Assembly (NCBI GenBank): GCA_038068435.1
Contig: JBBTLZ010000041.1
Coordinates: 142-64,141, forward strand
DNA length: 64,000 nucleotides
Reading direction: 5' to 3'
DNA from: Candidatus Eiseniibacteriota bacterium
Lineage (GTDB): Bacteria > Eisenbacteria > RBG-16-71-46
Positions 1 through 20,907 of this stretch are shown here, in pieces. The first letter of the stretch is position 1. The number at the start of each line of letters is the position of its first letter. A program made the translations under genes and the position numbers. Under the pieces are notes generated by a model. That model made no database searches. It was not told the DNA's origin and saw only the letters and a program-made list of their open reading frames with translations.

Positions 1-40
1 CGTCGATGGCCGCGCCGGCAACGGACCCGCGGGGCAGCGC

Positions 41-361
41 GTGGCTGGCGACCGGGACATGGCCTCCTACCGCCGGTCGCGAGCGCGGCGCGAGGCGACG
101 CGGGCGGCGCGCGAAGCGTTTGCGTTGGAGAGAGAGCTTGGCGCGTGGGTCCGTCGCGCCGAGGTTGCGCGCGACTGGCGCGCGATTGCGCAGCGGACGA
201 GGGACGCAATCCTGCTCACGCCGTGCCGCCTGTCGGCCAGCCTCCACGGGGCGGACGCCCGCGTCATTGAGGCGACGTTCATGCACGCGCTTCGCGAGGC
301 GCTGACAAGTCTCGCGGACGGCAAGGATGTCTTGAAGGATGTCTTGGAGGAGGCGACATGA
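41..361 (+). CDS. Hypothetical protein (106 aa) of the island
   Basis: ORF track. Its stop overlaps the next start, and a GGAGG RBS for the following gene lies in its 3' end. Confidence 0.35.
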   Translation: MAGDRDMASYRRSRARREATRAAREAFALERELGAWVRRAEVARDWRAIAQRTRDAILLTPCRLSASLHGADARVIEATFMHALREALTSLADGKDVLKDVLEEAT

Positions 362-570
362 CTCCATCACAGATGGCCGCGGCGAGGGTGTCCGACCAGA
401 TCGTGCACGTCCTTGCGGCGGATTACGGCGTGACGCTAACCGGCCCAGCCGTGGAGCGCGTCCGGGAGCTGATTGCCGTCGAGTTTGCGGGCGCACTCGC
501 GCCGCCTGGCGAGGGCTCGAGAGTTTACGGCGCAGCCTACCGGCGCGGACTTCGGCCCGACCCCGAATGA
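358..570 (+). CDS. Hypothetical small protein (70 aa)
   Basis: ATG preceded by GGAGGAGG. Coupled to the upstream ORF (ATGA overlap). Confidence 0.35.
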   Translation: MTPSQMAAARVSDQIVHVLAADYGVTLTGPAVERVRELIAVEFAGALAPPGEGSRVYGAAYRRGLRPDPE

Positions 571-602
571 CAGCGCCGCACGCGCGGCGCAAAGGAGGAC
601 AA

Positions 603-1202
603 ATGATGCTCAGGCCGAAAACGCTCCAGGAAATCGAGGACGCGCACGCCCACGACACGAGCCGCGAACCGTTCGCGCCACCCGTGCGTGACGCATACGG
701 CACGCGCGTGGGCGTGGTGCTCGACCCGGCGCACTTTCCGCCGGAGGCGGCGCCGCCCGAAGGCGGAGAAGTCCCGGTGAAAGTGTTGACGGCATTCTGC
801 CTCGGCACCGACCCCACGGGCAAGACCACGGACGGTTGGCCTGGCCAAGTCTTGATGATGGAGGCAGTCCGCGCCCGCCGCCTCGCCCGCCTCGGATTCT
901 GCGAACTCATCGTGGATCGCGTGGCCGAAGCCGTGGCGAGAAAGGCCGCCGTGGCCGCGCGGATCGAAGCGGCGCAAGCGGCCGCGAACCCAGCGCCGCC
1001 GCCGCCACCACCGGCGCCGGTGGCCGAGCCCGGCCCAGAAGTCGAGACGCTGACCGTGCGCACGAGGAAAGCCTTTTGCCTCGGCGCCGGCCACGACGTT
1101 GAGGCCGGCGTGGTCATGCGGATGAGTGTCGAGGACGCCATCCGCCGGGTGAGCAGCGGTCTTGTGGAGATTGTCGAAGGGCCGGAGCCGGGGCCCGCGT
1201 GA
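603..1202 (+). CDS. Hypothetical protein (199 aa) with an internal duplication
   Basis: A strong RBS AAAGGAGGA lies 6 nt before ATG 603, inside the 287-aa track ORF 339..1202. Two related half-domains (..LTAFCLGTDP..GQVLMMEAVRARRLARLGFCELI / ..RKAFCLGAGHD..GVVMRMSVEDAIRRVSSGLVEIV) are separated by a poly-Pro/Ala linker. Confidence 0.5.
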   Translation: MMLRPKTLQEIEDAHAHDTSREPFAPPVRDAYGTRVGVVLDPAHFPPEAAPPEGGEVPVKVLTAFCLGTDPTGKTTDGWPGQVLMMEAVRARRLARLGFCELIVDRVAEAVARKAAVAARIEAAQAAANPAPPPPPPAPVAEPGPEVETLTVRTRKAFCLGAGHDVEAGVVMRMSVEDAIRRVSSGLVEIVEGPEPGPA

Positions 1203-1762
1203 GCGATATCTTGCGCGTCGCCATCCACGAAAGCGGTCATTGCGCCGGCGCGCTCGCGATGGGCGAACGGGTGGCGCTTGTCACGATCGTGCCCTCGGCC
1301 GGCATGCTCGGCCACGTGCTTCCCGCCGCGCTGCCGCCGGGCGTGCGGGTGGCAGGGCCGGCCGTGGAGCTGACGGCGCTGGAGCGCGGGCGGTGCGTGG
1401 CGGGCGCGGCATTCGTTTCGGCCTGTGGCGAGGCGGCCGAGCAGATGATATTCGGCGACGCGCTGCTGGGGCACGGCGACCGCCACGACGTGGCGGACGA
1501 CGCGGCGGACGTGCTGGACTTGCTCAAGATCGAGCCCGGCGTGTGGGCGCGTGCACTACACGAGGCGGCCGAGCGTTTCGTGCACGACGCCCACGAGCAG
1601 ATCGAGGTCCTAGCGGTTGGGCTCGTGCGCGAGCGCACCGTGACGGGCGCACGCGCGCTGGAGATCGTCGGCGGCCGACCGCCCGCGCCGGACTTGCGGG
1701 CGGTCCACGGCGCGATCGAGTTTTTCGCGGCGCGCCGTGCGCGTGCGCGGGCCGCGACGTGA
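1199..1762 (+). CDS. HExxH metallopeptidase-like protein (187 aa; motif VAIHESGHCAG, FtsH/ImmA-like)
   Basis: GTG start overlapping the upstream stop (GTGA). HEsGH zinc-binding-type motif near the N-terminus. Confidence 0.5.
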   Translation: MSDILRVAIHESGHCAGALAMGERVALVTIVPSAGMLGHVLPAALPPGVRVAGPAVELTALERGRCVAGAAFVSACGEAAEQMIFGDALLGHGDRHDVADDAADVLDLLKIEPGVWARALHEAAERFVHDAHEQIEVLAVGLVRERTVTGARALEIVGGRPPAPDLRAVHGAIEFFAARRARARAAT

Positions 1763-1972
1763 TCGAAAACCGGAGGGCGCGGCCGAGGGGCGCACGCCCC
1801 ACGACTCCAGCACCGTGCAACCCGGTGCGGGCCCACGCTGGCGGCGGTTGCGATGCGCGCCGTCAGCACCCTCCCCCATTGTGGCGGGAAACGCGCGGGC
1901 AACCGACTCGCGCGTGCAGACGTGGGGACATGTCGCCCGCCGATTACTTCAACTCTACGTGGGGGGTGACGC

Positions 1973-2641
1973 ATGAACATCGAAGTTTCGATTGACGCCG
2001 CAAAGGCCCTGCTGCGGCTGAGGCGGGGCGCCAACAGGATGGGCTATGCGGCCGTGACCGCGATCAACAAAACGGTACTCGCCGTGCAAGCAGCCGAAAG
2101 AGAGCGCGCCGCCCGCGTGTTCACGCTCCGCAAAAGCGACTTCATCCTGCGCCAGGTCGCGATCGTCAGGCCCTTTGCCAGCGTGGCCGCGGGGCGTTTC
2201 GAGGCCCGCGTCAGCGTGGGCCAGAAGCCGCGCTTGCTGCTGGGGCAGTATGAGACGGGCTTCACGCGCCAGCCGTTCAAGGGCAAAAACGTCGCGGTCC
2301 CCGTGCTGGGGGGCGCCCGGCCCACGCGCGAGGCGGCGGTCCCGGCCGAGCTGCGCTTCACGGCCCTACAGTTGCGCCGCCCAGTCACCGGCCGCCGTGC
2401 CCCGCGCAAGGCAGGCCCCGGCACCCCTCTGCGCCGCGGGTTGTTGCGCACGTTCATGGTGCCCGGCGCGGTGCTCCAGCGCGTGGGCAGGGGCGCCACG
2501 CGTGTCCTTTACGTTCTCGCGCGGCCCTTCCGCGTCGCCCCGCGGTTGGAGTTCTACCGCACTGCGCGGCGCGTGATCGCACGCGACTTTGCGCGCAACC
2601 TCAAGCGGCAGATCGACGAGACATTTGGGCGGCACGCATGA
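1973..2641 (+). CDS. Hypothetical phage-like protein (222 aa)
   Basis: ATG with an upstream G-rich RBS. Follows a 210-nt non-coding gap. Arg-rich C-terminus. Confidence 0.5.
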   Translation: MNIEVSIDAAKALLRLRRGANRMGYAAVTAINKTVLAVQAAERERAARVFTLRKSDFILRQVAIVRPFASVAAGRFEARVSVGQKPRLLLGQYETGFTRQPFKGKNVAVPVLGGARPTREAAVPAELRFTALQLRRPVTGRRAPRKAGPGTPLRRGLLRTFMVPGAVLQRVGRGATRVLYVLARPFRVAPRLEFYRTARRVIARDFARNLKRQIDETFGRHA

Positions 2642-2958
2642 CTCGGACCGTGCACCGCTGGGCGACACCGCTGGGCCGGTGGGTCGCCGACTACGGCGCC
2701 GGGCGCCTTGCGCACGACGTTGGCCTGGCCGTGCACGGCACACCGCTTGCGCCGGTCTGCATCTACCAATGGCTCGCCGGTACGCACGAGCCGCGGCCCG
2801 CGCACGCGCGGCAGATCGTCCGACTTTCGCGCGGCGCCGTGTCGTTCAGCGATGTTTACAGCGTCCGCGCGGCCGTCGCCGCGAAAATGGTCGCCACAGA
2901 TCGGCCAGGACGGGCGATCCCGGCCACGCGCGACCCAGGACACGTGGGCAAACCGTGA
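2638..2958 (+). CDS. Putative DNA-binding protein (106 aa, HTH-like)
   Basis: ATGA overlap with the upstream ORF. The segment LAHDVGLAVHGTPLAPVCIYQWLAG resembles an HTH recognition unit. Confidence 0.4.
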   Translation: MTRTVHRWATPLGRWVADYGAGRLAHDVGLAVHGTPLAPVCIYQWLAGTHEPRPAHARQIVRLSRGAVSFSDVYSVRAAVAAKMVATDRPGRAIPATRDPGHVGKP

Positions 2959-3119
2959 GCCCGCGTGACCGCCGACTCGGCAGCAAGCGCGAGCTGGAGC
3001 AGCGCGCACGTGAGCAGCAGGCCCGCCGGGCCGCACGCCGCGCAGCCCGTCGAGAGCGCCGCGAGCGCCGCGAGAACAAAGCGGCGGGTGCGGCCGGGGA
3101 GCCCGCCCATGCCTGAGCC
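2952..3119 (+). CDS. Small highly basic Arg/Glu-rich protein (about 55 aa). Speculatively Xis- or coiled-coil-like.
   Basis: GTG start inside the stop region of the upstream ORF. Translation is ..RAREQQARRAARRAARRERRERREN.. Part of track ORF 2589..3116. Confidence 0.25.
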
Positions 3120-3270
3120 CGTGGTCCGGCCCGCGCTCGGCACCAGCCCGGCCGACGTGGCGGCATGCCCGCGCGAGGCGCTGCCCGGCCTGCTGGCTGA
3201 ACTCGCTGCGCTTCAAACGGCCGTGGCGGCGGCTGAGAAAGCCCTTGAACTCGCGGCCGTGACCGGCTAG
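3110..3270 (+). CDS. Small hypothetical protein (about 53 aa)
   Basis: ATG overlapping the upstream TGA (ATGCCTGA). The in-frame C-terminal part of track ORF 2965..3270. Confidence 0.25.
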
Positions 3271-3281
3271 CTTTCTGCGCC

Positions 3282-3491
3282 ATGAAAGCCAAGCGCGCGG
3301 GGAAGCCAAAGCCCACCGGACGGCCACCACGGACGGACCGGCCGTGCGCGGTACACGTCCGGCTCCCCGGCGCGCTGCGGACCTGGCTGCGGCGCCGCGG
3401 GGCGGCTGAGGGGCGACCCGAGGGCGACGTGATCGCGACAGCATTGGAACGGTATCGGCAACAGGTCTCGCAGCGCAGGAGGGCAGGATGA
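3282..3491 (+). CDS. Putative ribbon-helix-helix (CopG/Arc-like) DNA-binding protein (69 aa)
   Basis: N-terminal basic tail, then VHVRLPGALRTWLRRRG...VIATALERY. This matches the RHH beta-strand plus two-helix pattern. Confidence 0.4.
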   Translation: MKAKRAGKPKPTGRPPRTDRPCAVHVRLPGALRTWLRRRGAAEGRPEGDVIATALERYRQQVSQRRRAG

Positions 3492-3904
3492 CCACGCATG
3501 AGGCGGCTGACCTGATTGAGCAGATGGCGAAGTCCCTGGAGGACGACCCGGCGCAGTTTCACATCGAGTTAGCAATCACCGGCACGCAGGTCAGCGTGCA
3601 CGGCGGGGGCACGGGTCTCAATGTTCAGACTACGGGAGGCGGGGCCGGGTCGAGGACGACGGGCTTCTCCAGCGTCGCATCGACCGGCGACGTGCGGATC
3701 ACCCAGGGCAAAGCCGACAGGGAGTTTCGTGCGCGCCTCCAAGAGGTCGTCGGGACGCTGCGGCAGATTGCGGCCGAACTCCGGGCCACGGCGCCTGACG
3801 GGAAGAAGATCGGCGGGTGGGTTCGCGGGCTTGCCGAATGGGTCCCGCTCGTCATCAGAACGCTGGTGCAGACGCTGACTGCCCAGCATGGGGGTGCGCA
3901 ATGA
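3488..3904 (+). CDS. Hypothetical protein (138 aa), Gly/Thr-rich middle
   Basis: ATGA overlap with the upstream ORF. ORF track. Confidence 0.45.
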   Translation: MTTHEAADLIEQMAKSLEDDPAQFHIELAITGTQVSVHGGGTGLNVQTTGGGAGSRTTGFSSVASTGDVRITQGKADREFRARLQEVVGTLRQIAAELRATAPDGKKIGGWVRGLAEWVPLVIRTLVQTLTAQHGGAQ

Positions 3905-3963
3905 AAGCACGCGGCACGGGCAGTATCTATCGCGGGCGCGCGCATCCGTAGGGGGAGGAAGCC

Positions 3964-4218
3964 ATGAGATTGCGAAGGCTCATGGAAGCGTTCATGCGCG
4001 GATACCGCAAGGCTCCGCCGCCGAAGCCGACACCGGAAAAGGAAGCGATGTCCGAGCGCGAAAAGGACCCGCTCTATGCCCCCCAGGTGGACGACATGGA
4101 CGCCTGGGACAATATCGGGTGCCTCTTCCAGTGGCTCTTCTTTGCAGCTCTGATGGCAGCCCTGGTGCTGATTCTGCTCGCTGTCGTCAAGTGGGCGTGG
4201 GGGACGTTGTTCTCCTAG
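3964..4218 (+). CDS. Small membrane protein (84 aa). It has a C-terminal TM helix and lower GC than its surroundings.
   Basis: RBS GGGGGAGGAAGCC before the ATG. C-terminus LFQWLFFAALMAALVLILLAVVKWAW is a TM segment. Visibly AT-richer codons. Confidence 0.45.
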   Translation: MRLRRLMEAFMRGYRKAPPPKPTPEKEAMSEREKDPLYAPQVDDMDAWDNIGCLFQWLFFAALMAALVLILLAVVKWAWGTLFS

Positions 4219-4255
4219 GCATGGTGGCCGTATCTCGGCCCGTAAGGAGGAAACC

Positions 4256-5458
4256 GTGACGGAGGAACGCAAGGCAGACCCGAAGGCGGAGAGCAAGAAA
4301 CCGGCACGCCGCGGGTTGGGCAGCGCGTACCGGCAGAAGCGCGTCATCGACGGGGAGCGGGTCGAGTGCGGCCCGTGGTGGGTCAAGTTCTACCACCGCG
4401 GCAAGGCGCATCGGGAATCGTCGCACTCGATGAAGGAAGCGGACGCGGTGCGGTTGCTCAAGAGGCGGTTAGGCGAGATGGGGGCCGGGAGGTTCGTGCC
4501 CGACGCCGACAAGGTCGCGTTCGATGACCTGGCAGCAATGATCGTGGCGGACTACGAGGCCAACGGGCGCCGGTCACTGCCCGGGCTCAAGAACTCCATC
4601 GAGCACTTGCGCGCAGCCTTCGGCGGGATGGCCGCCGTCGCGATCACCACGGACCGCCTGACGCGCTACGTGCGTGACCGCCAGAAGGAGAAGCCGCCCG
4701 CCGCGAACGCGACCGTCCGCAAGGAGCTGATGGCGCTGCACCGCGCGTTCACGCTCGCGGTCCGCGCCGGCCGGCTGATGCACGCCCCTGCGTTTCCCAC
4801 CATCAGCGTGTCCAACGTGCGGCAGGGCTTTTTCGAGGACGGGGAGCTTGAGGCCGTGCTCGCGCACCTCGCGCCGCAGTACACGGCCGTGGTCCTGTTC
4901 CTGGCCTGGACCGGCTGGCGCAGGGGCGAAGCCCTGGGGTTGCGGTGGCGCGACGTGGACTTCAAGGCGGGCACCGCGAGGCTGGAGCCGGGCACGACGA
5001 AGAACGACGAGGGGCGGACCTACCCCTTCGCGGCACACCCGGCGCTCGCGGACCTGCTGCGCCGGCAGCGGGAGTCCGCATCGCGCATCGAGCGCGAGCG
5101 TGGGCGCATCGTCAACGCCGTATTCCACGGCCCCGACGGGCGTGCGATCGCGGACTTTCACGACGCCTGGGAGGAGGCTCGCAAGGAGGCCGGGCTTCCC
5201 GGCCGGCTGATTCACGACTTGCGCCGCACGGCTGTGAGGAACCTGGAGCGTGCCGGCGTGTCCCGCTCCGTGGCGATGAAGCTGACGGGCCACAAGACGG
5301 AGAGCGTGTACCGGCGGTATGCGATAGTCTCCGAGGCCGACTTGGGCGAAGGGGTGGGGAAGTTGGCCGCCCTCCACGCGAGTTCGGGCAGCATTCGGGC
5401 AGCATTTCCCCCCGAGGCAGCCCCGAAAGCGGGCAGTGCTGACGGTGGTAACACTTAG
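4256..5458 (+). CDS. int: Tyrosine recombinase / phage-type integrase
   Basis: GTG start 7 nt after AAGGAGG. Catalytic signature residues are present (LRWRDV, IHDLRRTAV, GHKTESVYRRYAIV), giving R..HxxR..Y. Confidence 0.9.
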   Translation: MTEERKADPKAESKKPARRGLGSAYRQKRVIDGERVECGPWWVKFYHRGKAHRESSHSMKEADAVRLLKRRLGEMGAGRFVPDADKVAFDDLAAMIVADYEANGRRSLPGLKNSIEHLRAAFGGMAAVAITTDRLTRYVRDRQKEKPPAANATVRKELMALHRAFTLAVRAGRLMHAPAFPTISVSNVRQGFFEDGELEAVLAHLAPQYTAVVLFLAWTGWRRGEALGLRWRDVDFKAGTARLEPGTTKNDEGRTYPFAAHPALADLLRRQRESASRIERERGRIVNAVFHGPDGRAIADFHDAWEEARKEAGLPGRLIHDLRRTAVRNLERAGVSRSVAMKLTGHKTESVYRRYAIVSEADLGEGVGKLAALHASSGSIRAAFPPEAAPKAGSADGGNT

Positions 5459-5483
5459 GAAGGCAATGAAATGCGTGCGGTGC

Positions 5484-5578
5484 GGGAGCGAATGGGATCT
5501 GGTGGTCCCCGGGGACTTCAAATCCTGCGGTCGGGCGTCAGCGTCCGAGGTGGGTTCGATTCCCACGCGTTCCCGCCA
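5484..5578 (+). tRNA. selC: tRNA-Sec (anticodon UCA), 95 nt, CCA encoded
   Basis: The anticodon arm GGACTTCAAATCC is identical to E. coli selC. Long variable arm TCGGGCG-TCAG-CGTCCGA. T arm GTGGGTTCGATTCCCAC. An 8-position acceptor helix GGGAGCGA/GCGTTCCC, discriminator G, then CCA. Confidence 0.8.
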
Positions 5579-5593
5579 CTTCTGCTCGCGGCG

Positions 5594-6343
5594 GTGGTGG
5601 TCGTGAGCCTGGCGGCTGCGCCGGCCGGCGCGCAGCCGGCGTCCCCGCGGCCGGCTGCGGCGGATACCGCGGCCGGGATCGGCGTGGCCGGGGGCGACAC
5701 CGCCGCGGCGCCGGGCACGGAAGGCGCCGAATCCGGGGCCGGCGTGCGATCGGTGCCATCGGGTATCGCCGCGCGCGCGCCGCGGACACTGCCCGAACGG
5801 GCGCGCCTCGACCAGCCGCGCTGGGTGATGCTGCGCTCGTTGCTCGTCCCCGGCTGGGGCCAGGCGCACAACCACGCCTGGATCAAGGCCGCGCTGCTGG
5901 CCGCGGGCGACGGCTCGCTGCGCTGGCGGCTCGTGCGCGACGAGCGGCGGCTGAACGATCTGAGCGGGCAGGCGGTCGGCCGGCGCGCGGACCTCGCGGT
6001 CGCCGAGGTGCAGGTGGCGGCGGCGCAGGCCGAGCTCACCGCGGCGCAGGCGTCGGGCGATTCGGTGCGCATCGCGGCCGCCGAGGCGGCGCTGCTGGCG
6101 GCGAACCTGGGGCGGATCGGCGCCTCGGAGGCGTTCAACGACGTGGTCGGGGCGTTCAACACCCTGCTCGACGCCTCGACCAACCGGCGATGGCTCGCGG
6201 GGGGCGTGGTGATCTACGCCCTTCTGGACGCCTACGTCGACGCCCACTTCCGTACCTTCGACGTCGATTTCCGGTTCGACCCGGCGCTGCCCGGGGGTGG
6301 CAAGACCCCCGGCGTGCGCCTCCAGCTCAGGTGGCGGTTTTGA
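5594..6343 (+). CDS. Hypothetical secreted protein with a Pro/Ala-rich N-terminal region and C-terminal ...LQLRWRF
   Basis: Track ORF 5471..6343 overlaps the tRNA. The start is therefore probably one of the GTGs at 5594-5603 or further downstream, and is uncertain. Confidence 0.35.
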
Positions 6344-8148
6344 GCGACCCCCGCCTTGGCCACATCCGCAACTTCTGCATCGTGGCGCACATCGACCACG
6401 GCAAGAGCACGCTCGCCGACCGGCTGCTCGAGATCACGCACACCCTGACCCCGCAGCAGATGAAGGCGCAGGTGCTGGACGACATGGACCTCGAGCGCGA
6501 GAAGGGCATCACCATCAAGTCGCACGCGATCGCGATGGACTACCGGGCGCGTGACGGCCGGACCTACCAGCTCAACCTGATCGACACGCCGGGCCACGTG
6601 GACTTCACCTACGAGGTCTCGCGCAGCCTCGCGGCCTGCGAGGGAGCGGTGCTGGTCGTGGATGCCTCGCAGGGGATCGAGGCCCAGACGCTCTCCAACT
6701 ATCTGCTCGCCCGCCAGCAGGGGCTGGCGGTGGTCGGGGCCATCAACAAGGTCGACCTGCCTGTGGCCCGGCCCGACGACACCGCGCTCGAGATCGAGCA
6801 CGTGACCGGCATCCTGGCGGAGAAGGTGCTGAGGATCAGCGCCAAGACCGGGCTCGGTGTCGAGGATCTGCTGGAACAGGTCATCGCCGACATCCCGGCG
6901 CCGTCGGGAGACCCGGACGCGCCGCTGCGGGCGCTCATCTTCGATTCGAAGTTCGATCAGTACCGCGGCGTGGTCGCCGTGGTACGGGTCGTGGACGGCG
7001 CGGTGAGGCCGGGGGACGCGATCCGCTTCATCTCGACCGGCAAGCGCTACGAGGTGACGGAGGTCGGGCGCCTGCGGCTCAAGCTCGAGCCGCTCGAGGC
7101 GCTGGGCGCCGGCCAGGTGGGCTACGTGGTGGCGGGGGTCAAGACGGTCGCGGAGGCGCGCGTCGGGGACACGCTGGGGGCGGCCGACGCGGCCGACCTC
7201 GAGCCGCTCCACGGGTTCCGCGAGGTCAAGCCGATGGTGTTCTCGGGGCTCTATCCGATCGATTCCGAGCAGTACGACGCGCTCAAGGAGGCGCTCTCGA
7301 AGTTCCAGCTGAACGACGCCTCGCTGATCTACGAGCCCGAGACCTCGGTGGCGCTGGGGTTCGGGTTCCGCTGCGGCTTCCTCGGGCTGCTTCACATGGA
7401 GATCGTGCAGGAGCGCTTGCGGCGCGAGTACCAGATCGATCTCATCGCCACGACGCCGAGCGTCGAGTTCCATCTGCTGCTCGAGAATGGTGAGCTGCTG
7501 GTGGTGGACAACCCGAGCCAGATGCCGCCCGCCAACACGATCGCCACCATCGAGGAGCCGTACGTGCTGGCGCACGTCCTGACGCCCGCCGAGTTCATGG
7601 GCAACATCATGAAGCTGTGCCAGGACCGGCGCGGCGTGTTCGTGAGCCTCGATTATCTGGAGGAGAAGCGGGCGCGGGTCGCCTACCGGCTGCCGCTCGC
7701 GGAGATCGTCCTCGACTTCTACGACCGGCTCAAGTCGGTGTCGCGCGGCTACGCCTCGCTGGACTACGAGTACGACGGCTACCGCGCGGGTGACATGGTG
7801 AAGCTCGACATCCTTCTCAACGCGGAGACGGTGGACGCGCTCTCGACTATCGTCCATCGCGACAAGGCCTACGAGTGGGGGCGCGATCTGTGCGCGAAGC
7901 TCAAGGAGCTGATCCCCCGGCAGATGTTCCAGGTGGCCATCCAGGCCTCCATTGGCAGCAAGGTGATCGCACGCGAGACCCTCGGAGCCATCCGCAAGAA
8001 CGTGACCGCCAAATGCTACGGTGGCGACATCACGCGCAAGCGGAAGCTGCTGGAGAAACAGAAGGAGGGTAAGCGCCGTATGAAGCAGATCGGGACCGTC
8101 GAAGTGCCCCAGGAGGCGTTCCTGGCGGTGCTCAAGGTCGAGCGTTGA
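6340..8148 (+). CDS. lepA: Elongation factor 4 (LepA)
   Basis: [22 protein letters not shown] and the rest of the protein are diagnostic for LepA. A TTG start at about 6340 is chosen by N-terminal alignment; the track ORF extends to 6190. Confidence 0.93.
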
Positions 8149-8775: not shown

Positions 8776-10076
8776 TGCCCACCGCATACCCTGCCGCCCA
8801 CGACCGGGCCGCGTCCCTCGAGGGGCCCGGGGCGTCCGCGCGCGCCGAGGCCCGCGTCGGACTCTACGTGCACGTGCCGTTCTGCGCGGTGCGCTGCGCC
8901 TACTGCGACTTCTCCAGCGGGACGCTGTCGGCGACGGCCGTGGAGCGGTATCTCGCCGGGATGGAACGCGAGGCGGCGTGGCGGGCACCGCAGGCGGAGG
9001 GTGTGGCGTTCACGTCGGTCTTCTTCGGCGGCGGCACGCCGTCGGCGTTCTCGGGCCGCCAATTTGCGCGCCTGTGGCGTGCGCTGCGATCGCACGTCAC
9101 CATCGCCCCGGGCGCCGAAATCACGCTCGAGGCCAATCCCGAATCCGTACGCCCGGCGCTGCTCGACGCGTGGGCGGCCGCCGGGGTCAACCGTCTCTCG
9201 ATGGGTGCCCAGAGCTTCGATCCGCAGGAGCTCTCGCGTCTGGGCCGCATCCACGACGCCGCCCGTCCGGGCGCGGCGTTCGCCCTCGCTCGGGCGCACG
9301 GCTTCCGGCGGCTCTCGCTCGATCTGATGTTCGGCTTCCCCGGGCACACCCCTGCCCGCTTCGCGGCCACGCTCGAGCGGGCGCTGGCCCTGGCGCCCGA
9401 ACACCTGTCGACATACTGCTTCATCCCCGAGGCGGGGACGCCGCTGGGCGACGAGGTCCTGCGCGGCGCAGCCGGGCTCCCGGACCCCGGGCAACAGGCG
9501 GACCTCTACGCGAGCCTGTGCGAGCGGCTCGCCGGCGGGGGCTTCGGCATCTACGAGACCTCGAACTTCTGCCGGCCGGGGGCTGAGGCGCGCCACAACC
9601 TGGTCTACTGGCTGCGGCGCGACTACCTCGGGCTTGGGCCCTCGGCCCACGGGCTGTGGCGCGGCGCGCGCTACGGGAACCACTACGGGATGGGGCGCTG
9701 GGCCGCGTCGCTCGAGGCGGATCGGGCCTGCGACACGGTCGAGCCCGAGAGCGCACGCTCGCGCGCGGACGAGATCGTGATGCTCGGGCTGCGCCTCGCG
9801 ACCGGGCTCGCCGCCGGCGATCACCCGCCGGCGCGCTGGGGCGAGGTGACGCGGCGCTACCGGTGCGCGTTCCGCGATGCGCTCGCCACCGGCCGGCTCG
9901 AACGCACGGCGGGCGGCGTGCGCGTCCCGCGCCGTCATCGATTCCTGGCCGACGATGTCATCGCCTGGCTGATGGCCGCCGCTGACCGCGACCCTTCCAC
10001 GCGCCGTGATGGCCGGGTGGCGGCGCGCGACGCGCGGGCCGCATTTGACAGCCCCGCGACGGCCTCTCTAACCTGA
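8775..10076 (+). CDS. hemW: Radical-SAM coproporphyrinogen-III oxidase-like protein (HemW/HemN family)
   Basis: CAVRCAYCDF (CxxxCxxC) radical-SAM motif. HemN-like C-terminus. ATG 8775 is in frame within track ORF 8718..10076. Confidence 0.85.
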   Translation: MPTAYPAAHDRAASLEGPGASARAEARVGLYVHVPFCAVRCAYCDFSSGTLSATAVERYLAGMEREAAWRAPQAEGVAFTSVFFGGGTPSAFSGRQFARLWRALRSHVTIAPGAEITLEANPESVRPALLDAWAAAGVNRLSMGAQSFDPQELSRLGRIHDAARPGAAFALARAHGFRRLSLDLMFGFPGHTPARFAATLERALALAPEHLSTYCFIPEAGTPLGDEVLRGAAGLPDPGQQADLYASLCERLAGGGFGIYETSNFCRPGAEARHNLVYWLRRDYLGLGPSAHGLWRGARYGNHYGMGRWAASLEADRACDTVEPESARSRADEIVMLGLRLATGLAAGDHPPARWGEVTRRYRCAFRDALATGRLERTAGGVRVPRRHRFLADDVIAWLMAAADRDPSTRRDGRVAARDARAAFDSPATASLT

Positions 10077-10081
10077 GCGCC

Positions 10082-11122
10082 ATGTCCCATCCTGCCTTCC
10101 CCGGCGCCGTGAGCCGCGAGGATCCCGAGCTCACCGATCGGCAGCGCGAGGTGTTCGTCGCCCTGGTGACGCTGCACGGCGACAGCGCGCGCCCGGTCGG
10201 CTCCGAATCGCTCGCCCATCGGGCCGGCATCCCGCTCTCGCCGGCGAGCATCCGCAATGCCCTGGCGGAGCTCGAGGGGATGGGCCTGCTGGCGCGGAGC
10301 CATGCGTCGGCCGGCCGCGTCCCGAGCGAGAGCGGCTACGACTTCCTGGTCCGCCATCTGCTCACGCCCGCCTCGCTGCCGCCCGAGCTGCTCACGCAGG
10401 TGGACGAGACGCTCCGCCGCTCCGCGCACGACGTCGAGCACCTGCTGGGCGAGGCATCGCGCCTGCTCTCCGAGCTCACGCACCAGCTGGGGCTCGCGCT
10501 GACCGCGTCGCTGGAGCACGAGCGCCTGGCCAAGCTCGAGCTGGAGCCGCTCGATGTGCGCCGGGTACTCATGGTCCTCGGCCTCGGCGGCGGAGCGGTG
10601 CGCACGCTGGTGCTGGAGTTGGACAGCCCGCTCGAGCGCAGCGAGCTGGAGGAAGTGGCGTCGGTGCTCCGCGAACGCCTGCTCGGTCGCGACCTCGCCG
10701 AGGTGCGCGACCGTCTGGCGGCCGACCCCGAGCTGGTGCGCCGCAGCGCGGTGCGCCTGGTGGCCCACTCGGCGGCGGCGCGGTGGGCACCGATGGGGCC
10801 GGCGGCGAGGTTCAGCGCCGGCGCGGGGCATATCGCCGAGCAGCCCGAGTTCGCCGGGCGTCCCCAGCTGGGTCCGCTGCTGCGGGTGGTCGAGAACGGT
10901 CCACCCCTCGACCGCCTGATGATCGAGGGCATCGAGGGCCATCCCGCGGTGCGGGTGGGCCTCGATGAGGACGTGGCGCTCAGCCGCTGCAGCCTGGTCA
11001 GCTACCCGCTGCCCGGCGAGCTGCGCGGGGCGGTCGGCGTGCTGGGGCCGCTGCGGATGGATTATGCGCGCGTGTTCTCGATCGTCGACGCCGTCGGCCG
11101 GCGCGTCGCTGAGCTGCTCTAG
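10082..11122 (+). CDS. hrcA: Heat-inducible transcriptional repressor HrcA
   Basis: N-terminal winged-helix LTDRQREVFVALV, and HrcA-family length and sequence. Confidence 0.88.
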   Translation: MSHPAFPGAVSREDPELTDRQREVFVALVTLHGDSARPVGSESLAHRAGIPLSPASIRNALAELEGMGLLARSHASAGRVPSESGYDFLVRHLLTPASLPPELLTQVDETLRRSAHDVEHLLGEASRLLSELTHQLGLALTASLEHERLAKLELEPLDVRRVLMVLGLGGGAVRTLVLELDSPLERSELEEVASVLRERLLGRDLAEVRDRLAADPELVRRSAVRLVAHSAAARWAPMGPAARFSAGAGHIAEQPEFAGRPQLGPLLRVVENGPPLDRLMIEGIEGHPAVRVGLDEDVALSRCSLVSYPLPGELRGAVGVLGPLRMDYARVFSIVDAVGRRVAELL

Positions 11123-20667: not shown

Positions 20668-20708
20668 CACACGGCTTTTGGCGCACGGATGCATGCGCGC
20701 CCATCGCT

Positions 20709-20782
20709 GGGCCCATAGCTCAGCGGTCCAGAGCGGCCGGCTCATAACCGGCGAGACCCTGGTTCGAATCCAGGTGGGCCCA
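20709..20782 (+). tRNA. tRNA with anticodon CAT (elongator tRNA-Met, or tRNA-Ile2 if lysidinylated). Not an initiator (G1:C72 paired).
   Basis: Cloverleaf: acceptor GGGCCCA/TGGGCCC, anticodon loop CTCATAA, T arm CCTGGTTCGAATCCAGG. No encoded CCA. Confidence 0.8.
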
Positions 20783-20831
20783 TGAGTCCACGGCGCGGAG
20801 GCCGCGCGGACGCGCGGCGCACGGCCTCCGG

Positions 20832-20907
20832 GGGCGGATAGCTCAGCTGGCAGAGCACCAGGATCACAACCTGGGGGTCACAGGTTCGAGCCCTGTTCCG
20901 CCCACCA
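20832..20907 (+). tRNA. tRNA-Val (anticodon CAC), CCA encoded
   Basis: Acceptor GGGCGGA/TCCGCCC, anticodon stem CCAGG/CCTGG with loop ATCACAA, T arm ACAGGTTCGAGCCCTGT. Confidence 0.8.

Follow-up and report, generated by a model that had tools for sequence, protein, structure and literature searches.

The first 5.5 kb (1..5522, + strand) of a 64,000-nucleotide stretch of a Candidatus Eisenbacteria genome are the right-hand part of a 10,025-bp integrative element that ends in a tyrosine integrase gene and abuts the selenocysteine tRNA gene (tRNA-Sec, selC). The whole stretch (GenBank assembly GCA_038068435.1, contig JBBTLZ010000041.1, forward-strand positions 142 to 64,141) is referred to as the window. 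The element was very probably integrated at the anticodon loop of tRNA-Sec, supplies the 5′ half of the present gene, and has left the displaced native 5′ half at its distal attachment (att) site, attL; a probability of about 0.88 is assigned to this reading. The locus belongs to a documented minority class of islands, those with reversed target orientation, in a new host phylum and at a new sublocation of tRNA-Sec.

Attachment sites and the empty site

The left 4.5 kb of the element lie outside the window and were read from positions 84-4586 of L001, a 13-kb public contig (CAYIRT010000042.1) of a Candidatus Eisenbacteria metagenome-assembled genome (GCA_964365695.1); window positions are obtained by subtracting 4586 from L001 positions. 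The integrase protein is identical in L001, which differs from the window by 5 mismatches in 8,450 nt and runs 4,586 nt further to the left. The features of the right end are listed below, with L142 as the uninterrupted relative locus used for comparison.

4256-5458, + strand: tyrosine integrase, 400 aa (PF00589, 63 bits against a cutoff of 27.1; phrog_1, 1e-50)
5384..5405, + strand: TCGGGCAGCAT twice in tandem, a candidate pair of arm-type sites (P arm) that falls within the 3′ end of the integrase gene; equal to L001 9970-9991
5471..5522, + strand: element-borne segment of attR, 13 nt of leader and tRNA-Sec positions 1-39; direct repeat with L001 32-86
5484-5578, + strand: chimeric, structurally intact tRNA-Sec (ARAGORN), anticodon TCA at 5518-5520; equal to L001 10070-10164
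5509..5522, no strand assigned: common core CCGGGGACTTCAAA, 14 nt, made up of the 5′ strand of the anticodon stem and the 7-nt anticodon loop
5523..5578, + strand: native 3′ part of tRNA-Sec, 100% identical to the 3′ half in L142; host DNA onwards

When repeats were sought within the window alone, no partner of the att site came up, the distal copy being beyond its left edge; it was found once L001 was added. The direct repeat joins L001 32-86 to 10057-10111 (55 nt, 84% identity) and extends from leader position -13 to tRNA position 42. Its left copy is a solitary 5′ half of tRNA-Sec (fragment L001 45-83), located upstream on the same strand, right after the stop codon of selD; no second tRNA was detected at attL by Rfam or ARAGORN. 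The core CCGGGGACTTCAAA is identical in the unoccupied site (attB), attL and attR, the copies diverge right after the 3′ edge of the loop, and the core-to-core distance is 10,025 bp. Judged by these alignments, the crossover must have fallen somewhere within the 14 nt of CCGGGGACTTCAAA.

Scanning of metagenome contigs with the 3′-side sequence of tRNA-Sec gave 107 loci, the closest of which was L142. This locus shows the empty site, with selD, an intact tRNA-Sec, DUF5683 and lepA in this order. L001 1-86 and the window from 5583 (to 8200) map 58 nt apart in L142, around a single intact tRNA-Sec, the 5′ half of which is 100% identical to attL and the 3′ half 100% identical to attR. The host DNA 3′ of tRNA-Sec in the window (DUF5683, then lepA) is 88.7% identical to L142 over 2,630 nt. 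Of the metagenome tRNA-Sec loci for which 1.5 kb or more of upstream sequence is available (45), 43 gave no integrase of this family; in the other two, the integrase lies directly upstream and is co-directional. Since L142 is empty and 43/45 loci are without a family integrase, the usual state of the site is empty, and the 10,025 bp from core to core are an insertion.

The two 5′ halves are of different descent. That of attR differs from the native allele (L142, attL) at five tRNA positions, including compensatory changes in the D-stem (GGGATC/GGTCCC against GAGGTC/GGCCTC) and A5>G. The A5 of the attL allele pairs with the U of the native 3′ acceptor strand, and in the chimera this pair is G5.U. 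It follows from the fit of A5 with U and from the compensatory D-stem differences that the left copy was the original partner of the present 3′ half. The 5′ allele supplied by the element is itself native at other Eisenbacteria loci (for example, L129 and L130). The chimera scores 72.2 bits with the Rfam model RF01852 (threshold 47 bits), against 73.2 bits for the uninterrupted gene of L142. Element sequence thus replaces the 5′ part of tRNA-Sec, with a non-native 5′ half in attR and the native one in attL, and the block of identity between attB and the reconstructed site of the circular element (attP) is bounded by the anticodon loop. The predicted junction sequences are GGTGGTCCCCGGGGACTTCAAACCCGATCTTGCCGCGCATG for attP and GGTGGCCTCCGGGGACTTCAAATCCTGCGGTCGGGCG for attB.

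A second, independent element was found in L004, a 967-kb Eisenbacteria contig with the closest integrase homologue (64% identity) and different cargo. The order there is integrase, tRNA-Sec 34 nt further on, DUF5683, lepA and lepB, which is the same synteny. Its att repeat, an exact 42-nt match situated 10.9 kb upstream, starts 2-3 nt ahead of the tRNA and stops with the final base of the anticodon loop.

These data bear on the possibility that a complete tRNA-Sec is carried as cargo and is not the attachment site, to which the element-type leader and 5′ half adjoining the integrase would conform. However, the 3′ half is fully identical to the native L142 allele and continuous with host DNA, repeat identity stops at the boundary of the anticodon loop in two independent elements, and the distal copy is only a 5′ half with no second tRNA beside it by Rfam or ARAGORN. 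A cargo tRNA is therefore considered very improbable.

In the preliminary description, made from the letters of the window alone, the integrase stop had been placed 25 nt before a tRNA-Sec on the same strand, and the position of the element 5′ of the tRNA had been called atypical. Both observations hold (the ORF, open reading frame, ends at 5458 with its stop codon included, and the tRNA begins at 5484). Of the three options offered there, an unusual att core is not borne out, as the core is of the ordinary anticodon-loop sublocation, and a tRNA that is not the integration site is contradicted by attB, attL and attR; an element that carries or reconstitutes the tRNA describes the locus well, with the 5′ half supplied by the element and the native 5′ half 10 kb upstream. 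The checks proposed at that time were leftward extension with a search for repeats of 5450-5600, which yielded the partner at L001 32-86, and comparison with a relative that lacks the insert, which is provided by L142. The outcomes named as speaking against an island were not encountered: the integrase is intact and att repeats are present.

Replacement of the 5′ part of a tRNA gene on integration is credited to Zhao & Williams 2002 (J Bacteriol 184:859) in later papers that cite it. The Islander database lists 159 of 3,919 islands with a 5′ tDNA fragment and 2,083 of 3,919 with an anticodon-centred attP; 5′-distal recombination was termed "considerably less frequent" by Krupovic et al. 2019. 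The anticodon loop is sublocation "A" in the Williams 2002 classification, as summarised in Islander. By the Islander figures the geometry, presented earlier as possibly new, is that of a known minority. The features by which Islander recognises islands are present: a non-Xer integrase inside, an intact tDNA with an upstream 5′ fragment in the same orientation, a length of 10,025 bp (within 2-200 kb) and an uninterrupted relative. As in other reversed tDNA islands, the element lies 5′ of the regenerated tRNA, contributes its 5′ portion and the sequence upstream, leaves a 5′ fragment in direct orientation and has a tyrosine integrase inside; the differences are the host phylum, Eisenbacteria, and the target, tRNA-Sec. 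In the library searched, no paper came up that deals with Eisenbacteria together with prophage and integrase.

The LEE, SHI-2 and PAI-I islands of Enterobacteria target the 3′ end of selC. For the Pf-tRNA-Sec filamentous prophages of P. aeruginosa, attP is a 27-bp segment from the T-arm to CCA, and HTH_17-type excisionases are documented. The present element shares with these prophages the target gene, a tyrosine integrase and an HTH_17-type protein; however, 3′-end selC elements lie 3′ of the tRNA, whereas the present element recombined in the anticodon loop and is found on the 5′ side, so it falls outside the 3′-end class.

The host side of the junction includes an ORF for DUF5683 (window 5471-6343, L001 10057-10929) which, also in the public call, starts 5′ of tRNA-Sec and runs through the tRNA. 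Homology to relatives begins only at about residue 95-115; the start codon has thus probably been miscalled, with the real gene predicted to start after tRNA-Sec.

Integrase family and target orientation

All catalytic residues of the integrase (R222, K249, H320, R323, H346, Y355) are present and are invariant in an alignment of 30 relatives; the NCBIfam Xer and integron models remained far under their cutoffs. In the AlphaFold (AF2) model (predicted local distance difference test score, pLDDT, 87.5), strands 22-31, 34-47 and 50-55 and a helix 61-76 are followed by the core-binding and catalytic domains. The best Foldseek match was full-length lambda Int (1z1b_A, E 3e-8, 369 aligned columns). 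By this model the integrase has a lambda-Int-like three-domain architecture, including an N-terminal domain of the arm-binding type.

Candidate arm sites were found at both ends. The two tandem copies of TCGGGCAGCAT at 5384..5405 are the only exact copies in the 64-kb window, and three more tandem copies of this 11-mer are situated just inside attL (L001 198-230), a count reached in 0 of 200 shuffles. In L004, the same motif occurs at -97, -86 and -75 from the tRNA start and again about 120-140 nt inside attL (0/100 shuffles). At the same place, L188 has two copies of the variant CGGGCACCAT, and the more distant L183 has two copies of a different repeat, GGGGGATAC. In the circular form, the repeats would be spaced from the core by about 95-125 nt on one side (left) and 115-147 nt on the other (right). 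By analogy, this layout is that of a lambda-type attP, and the integrase is predicted to be heterobivalent in the manner of lambda Int, with its N-terminal domain binding the TCGGGCAGCAT repeats. Similarity to the lambda system thus comprises the three predicted domains, the top structural match, short direct repeats about 100-150 nt to both sides of the core and a small HTH (helix-turn-helix) protein. The differences are a sequence identity of 16-18% in structural alignments and the position of the P-arm repeats, here within the coding sequence of the integrase. Both sets of arm repeats (window 5380-5410, L001 190-235) are translated and give the peptide SSGSIRAAF in the C-terminal tail of the integrase and in the long ORF at the left end; the likeness of these two proteins is due to the shared DNA repeats.

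Relatives of the integrase (44-57% identity) were collected from 80 loci of many phyla by a scan of GTDB species genomes. For the census of target orientation, 89 integrases were tabulated, tRNA genes were called with ARAGORN up to 600 nt past the integrase stop, and 11 loci were verified by att repeats. The usual geometry, with the tRNA convergent on the opposite strand, was observed in 28 cases (Leu-TAA 12, Leu-CAA 11, Phe 3, Arg 2). The reversed, same-strand geometry accounts for 11 of 39 tRNA-linked members (Sec 3, Leu-TAG 3, Lys 2, and Arg, Met and Leu-TAA 1 each); the reversed state, a minority in Islander, is here found in several clades. For 47 of the 89 integrases, no tRNA was called within 600 nt past the stop.

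The verified repeats follow the orientation. In the usual cases (n=7), the repeat spans the tRNA from position ~29-33 (46 in L049) to the 3′ end; in the reversed cases (n=4; two Sec, Lys in L020 and Leu-TAG in L086), it spans the 5′ end (~0) to 38/39. The whole anticodon loop is contained in the verified repeats (the block of L049 is listed from 46), and the tRNA-derived arm adjoins the integrase stop. In L001 and L004 the block stops at tRNA position 39 and in L020 at position 38, in each case the final base of the loop; in L086 it stops at position 39, one past the loop. The present site therefore resembles those of other anticodon-loop integrases in that the identity block covers the whole 7-nt loop and continues to one end of the tRNA, the stem arms being possible inverted core sites, and differs in the end that is reached, the 5′ end here and the 3′ end (from ~29-33) in the usual-orientation relatives.

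In a rough neighbour-joining (NJ) tree without bootstrap, the Sec integrases formed one clade, and the other reversed groups fell into separate clades among relatives of usual orientation. Target orientation may have been flipped repeatedly, in at least three clades as verified by att repeats and in up to five according to the NJ tree. Two NJ sisters, L034 (integrase 703-1896, tRNA-Arg-TCT on the + strand) and L065 (integrase 9662-11077, tRNA-Arg-TCT on the - strand), show opposite orientations and, if confirmed, would represent a very recent flip. No att repeats were obtained for L034/L065 or for L036/L073, either for want of flanking sequence or because the search gave none, and these pairs were not counted as flips.

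A purely coincidental adjacency of integrase and tRNA-Sec, with the real attachment site elsewhere, could be imagined, given that 47 of 89 family members lack a tRNA in the 600 nt next to the stop and that not all therefore use tRNA targets. Against this, the four integrases of the Sec clade all lie 24-34 nt upstream of tRNA-Sec on the same strand (4/4), and the att repeats and the empty site agree at base level; the attB/attL/attR triad refutes coincidence, the likelihood of which is put close to nil.

On this evidence, integration at the anticodon loop proceeded as follows. The native locus consisted of selD, tRNA-Sec about 25 nt past the selD stop, DUF5683 and lepA. In the attP of the incoming element, the integrase stop is directly followed by the element's own version of the tRNA-Sec leader and of the 5′ half up to and including the anticodon loop, and this attP recombined with the chromosomal tRNA-Sec within the 14-nt core CCGGGGACTTCAAA. 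At attR, the element 5′ half was thereby fused to the native 3′ half, so that tRNA-Sec is chimeric but intact; at attL, the native 5′ half, now displaced, adjoins selD. The arms of the anticodon stem may serve as inverted core sites, with strand exchange across the 7-nt loop as the overlap region; the TCGGGCAGCAT 11-mers would be the arm sites, and the HTH_17 protein encoded in the left half is likely to be the excisionase or directionality factor.

Some results weigh against a mobile element of this kind. A search of IMG/VR for the attP junction of the excised circle gave 0 matches, and no empty site was found in the same species, the best being that of the relative L142 at 88.7% nucleotide identity. 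All four assemblies with this integrase show the integrated state, and beyond the core several positions are not the same in attL and attR. These points would suit a fixed, immobile and domesticated island that supplies the 5′ half of tRNA-Sec together with its expression signals. Against such an island stand a full-length integrase with all catalytic residues, exact arm repeats on both sides and an excisionase-like gene; the core is identical in attL and attR, and the differences outside it are those expected of a foreign attP allele and not of decay. The site is moreover empty in most relatives, so the insertion is evolutionarily recent and patchy. A domesticated remnant is accordingly held to be unlikely, at about one chance in four.

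Two independent Logan contigs, L002 and L003, both end at window 5518, within the anticodon loop. They were considered as a sign of excision and rejected, as a branch in a k=31 de Bruijn graph fits: with k=31 (assumed), the alleles of the element and of other species differ only at position 5, and 5 + 30 = 35, which is window 5518.

Gene content and kind of element

The window carries eleven + strand ORFs at 1-5458, the last of which is the integrase gene; the ten that precede it are as follows.

1..361 (ORF 41-361), + strand: small-terminase-like gene, of which the window has the 3′ part (the fragment, for the C-terminal portion of the protein, matches phrog_57 "terminase small subunit" at E 1.2e-9)
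358-570, + strand: 70-aa ORF, in the public annotation of L001; no family match (Pfam, PHROGs)
603-1202, + strand: 199-aa ORF, in the L001 annotation; no match (Pfam, PHROGs, NCBIfam)
1199-1762, + strand: 187-aa ORF with an HExxH motif (IHESGH); weak match to Peptidase_M41 (E 4.5e-4), under the curated cutoff
1973-2641, + strand: 222-aa phage-shared gene (phrog_1924, E 2.6e-11)
2638-2958, + strand: 106-aa phage-shared gene with weak repressor-like similarity (phrog_35, E 1.3e-3)
2965-3270, + strand: 101-aa ORF, publicly called shorter (3109-3270); no match
3282-3491, + strand: 69-aa ORF without a public call; weak tblastn match to L183
3488-3904, + strand: 138-aa ORF; no match
3964-4218, + strand: 84-aa ORF with a hydrophobic C-terminus; no match

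The small-terminase-like (TerS-like) gene is complete in L001 (4423-4947, 174 aa), where phrog_57 is matched at 1.3e-17 over residues 7-171/174 and no Pfam match was obtained. The 187-aa ORF possibly encodes a metallopeptidase-like regulator, to judge by its motif. Homologues of the 222-aa protein (42-44% identity) are present in the 40-44 kb phage contigs L195 and L196; the homologue of the 106-aa protein adjoins it in L195 and is also present in L196. The pair at window 1973-2958 matches L195 9741-10690, and L196 at 7237-7548 and 10001-10702. The label "minor tail protein" of phrog_1924 was not adopted for the 222-aa gene, its L196 homologue being found among early genes. L195 and L196 have RcGTA-type tail genes and a GpA-type large terminase; they are possible relatives of a helper phage.

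The left half, as read from L001, is co-directional and encodes a protein of 311-374 aa, one of 91 aa, the HTH_17 excisionase-like protein (L001 1509-1853), a DnaB-N-terminal-like protein, a 580-aa protein, an 80-aa protein and the TerS-like protein. The 580-aa protein matches phrog_29234 (2.8e-80) and corresponds to the C-terminal, helicase-like portion of phage primase/polymerase families. PDB sequence searches with the 580-aa and 222-aa proteins gave nothing significant, and NCBIfam provided no further assignments for the cargo. Searches against Pfam, PHROGs and NCBIfam detected no genes for capsid, portal, large terminase, tail, lysis or conjugation.

Much of what had been stated about this region beforehand was reproduced. 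The eleven + strand genes have stop-start overlaps (four junctions, each of 4 nt), the terminal tyrosine integrase is confirmed, and searches of the small ORFs against Pfam, NCBIfam and PHROGs brought up no housekeeping family. The local GC dip exists but is slight: the window has ~72% GC, and the element 0.702-0.706 against 0.722 ± 0.012 for the remaining window (5.5-kb windows, minimum 0.692). Host stretches fall equally low, and the dip was rejected as a sign of foreign origin because it lies inside host variation. Third-position GC (GC3) is the clearer compositional signal, at 0.75-0.89 for the element ORFs against 0.88-0.94 for three host genes (lepA, lepB and a radical-SAM gene). The absence of capsid and tail genes stands, and no large terminase was found, but the ORF at 41-361 is TerS-like (phrog_57), so that the claim was too broad for terminases. 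The suggestion of a satellite, an element like a phage-inducible chromosomal island (PICI), or a defective element agrees in part: the element is complete at ~10 kb, with intact integrase and att sites, the TerS-like gene and the phage-shared genes; it sits less well with the co-directional genes and with the share of ORFs, about half, that have no assignable function, and neither a helper nor an excised form was seen.

That the cargo is phage-satellite-like is suggested by the DnaB-N-like and helicase-like proteins, the TerS-like protein, the two genes shared with tailed phages and the lack of detected structural genes, and is given somewhat less than an even chance. Small size, integration, an integrase, a replication module and a packaging gene, without detected structural or lysis genes, are as in PICIs and other satellites. 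In the canonical PICI layout, the integrase gene is at one end beside a divergently transcribed repressor pair. Resemblance to PICIs extends to the length of ~10 kb, the integrase, the replication module, the TerS-like gene, site-specific integration and the lack of virion structural genes among those found. In contrast, all genes are co-directional here with the integrase last, unlike the canonical PICI layout, and no helper, capsid-redirection genes, or cos or pac site was identified. Two further points weigh against satellite character: the sister element L004 has no TerS-like match, and about half of the element ORFs are without an assignable function.

An integrative plasmid-like or mobilisable element that shares only the integrase-att module with phages was weighed alongside. 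The cargo of integrase relatives is varied, including a Replic_Relax protein in L006 and a DnaB/AAA_25 helicase in L004, and the window element has no capsid, portal or large terminase (TerL). Opposed to this are the TerS-like protein (1.3e-17) and the two-gene cassette common to 40-44 kb tailed-phage contigs, and no relaxase, type IV coupling protein (T4CP) or other conjugation gene was detected in Pfam and NCBIfam searches. Integrase relatives are also found in 35-58 kb IMG/VR viral contigs, together with several contigs of ~10-11 kb, and 7 of 11 att-mapped elements are 9.5-11.1 kb long. A plasmid-like nature is rated at roughly one chance in three.

Six IMG/VR contigs with integrase relatives (L197, L198, L202, L203, L205 and L217) are only ~10-14 kb long and may be complete small elements, not fragments. 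In Verrucomicrobia, an element at tRNA-Leu(CAA) (L007 8971-11206 and L015) carries, within ~10 kb, two tandem integrases, two Terminase_4 genes, a Peptidase_S78 prohead protease and a TMP_2-like gene; it looks like a capsid-forming satellite or a reduced prophage. Elsewhere in the window, tRNA-Met(CAT) and tRNA-Val(CAC) lie 48 nt apart on the + strand at 20708-20907.

The selD-tRNA-Sec unit and expression of tRNA-Sec

The gene upstream of the empty site is selD (TIGR00476, 346 bits; L142 560-1648), which ends 27 nt before tRNA-Sec, and L001 begins with the last 20 nt of the same gene. selD was found within 200 nt upstream of tRNA-Sec in 47 of 75 metagenome loci, and in these 47 the order selD, tRNA-Sec, DUF5683, lepA is conserved. 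In L142, the active-site loop of SelD (..ACAG*ASKLGP..) includes an in-frame TGA codon, and the enzyme, which makes selenophosphate, appears from this sequence to be a selenoprotein itself and dependent on tRNA-Sec.

As the insertion parts tRNA-Sec from selD and from any native upstream signals, expression of tRNA-Sec would have to come from the element. The tRNA would be transcribed either from an element-borne promoter around the integrase 3′ end or by read-through out of the one-directional gene array that ends there, no terminator having been found between integrase and tRNA; the two are equally possible. AT-rich -10-like hexamers (TGAAAT, TAAAAT, TAGATT) were observed 11-12 nt before the tRNA in three of the four Sec elements. 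In the window, TGAAAT lies at about 5467-5472. It counts against this part of the reading that no sigma-70-type promoter or terminator was found around the integrase-tRNA junction in a scan of L001 9700-10300, Eisenbacteria promoters being uncharacterised.

In several Eisenbacteria lineages (L089, L099, L102-L105 and others), the extended -10-like motif TGTGCTAyyT is present about 20 nt before the native tRNA-Sec; it is lacking at loci such as L142, in which the end of selD is no more than about 30 nt from tRNA-Sec. This distribution of the motif suggests two native modes of tRNA-Sec expression, from its own promoter or by co-transcription with selD.

The locus provides a base-resolved attB/attL/attR case of replacement of a tRNA 5′ half in a candidate phylum without cultured members, and tRNA-Sec can be targeted at the anticodon loop besides the 3′ end. 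Programs that search for islands or prophages only 3′ of tRNA genes would miss or mis-bound about a quarter of the tRNA-linked members of this family. Integrase, attP and attB are defined well enough for trial as a recombination tool.

For the biology of the family, it is proposed tentatively, and as slightly less than one chance in three, that orientation was flipped repeatedly among these widespread anticodon-loop integrases and that a selC-specific Eisenbacteria clade splits the conserved selD-selC unit, with host tRNA-Sec expression depending on transcription from the element. If this is true, the dependence would extend to the host selenoproteome, including SelD, apparently a selenoprotein in the closest relative, L142, and would amount to a built-in host dependence or to a regulatory coupling of element activity with selenium metabolism. 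If tRNA-Sec is transcribed from the element, a mobile element would be in control of a single-copy gene that is needed for selenoprotein synthesis.

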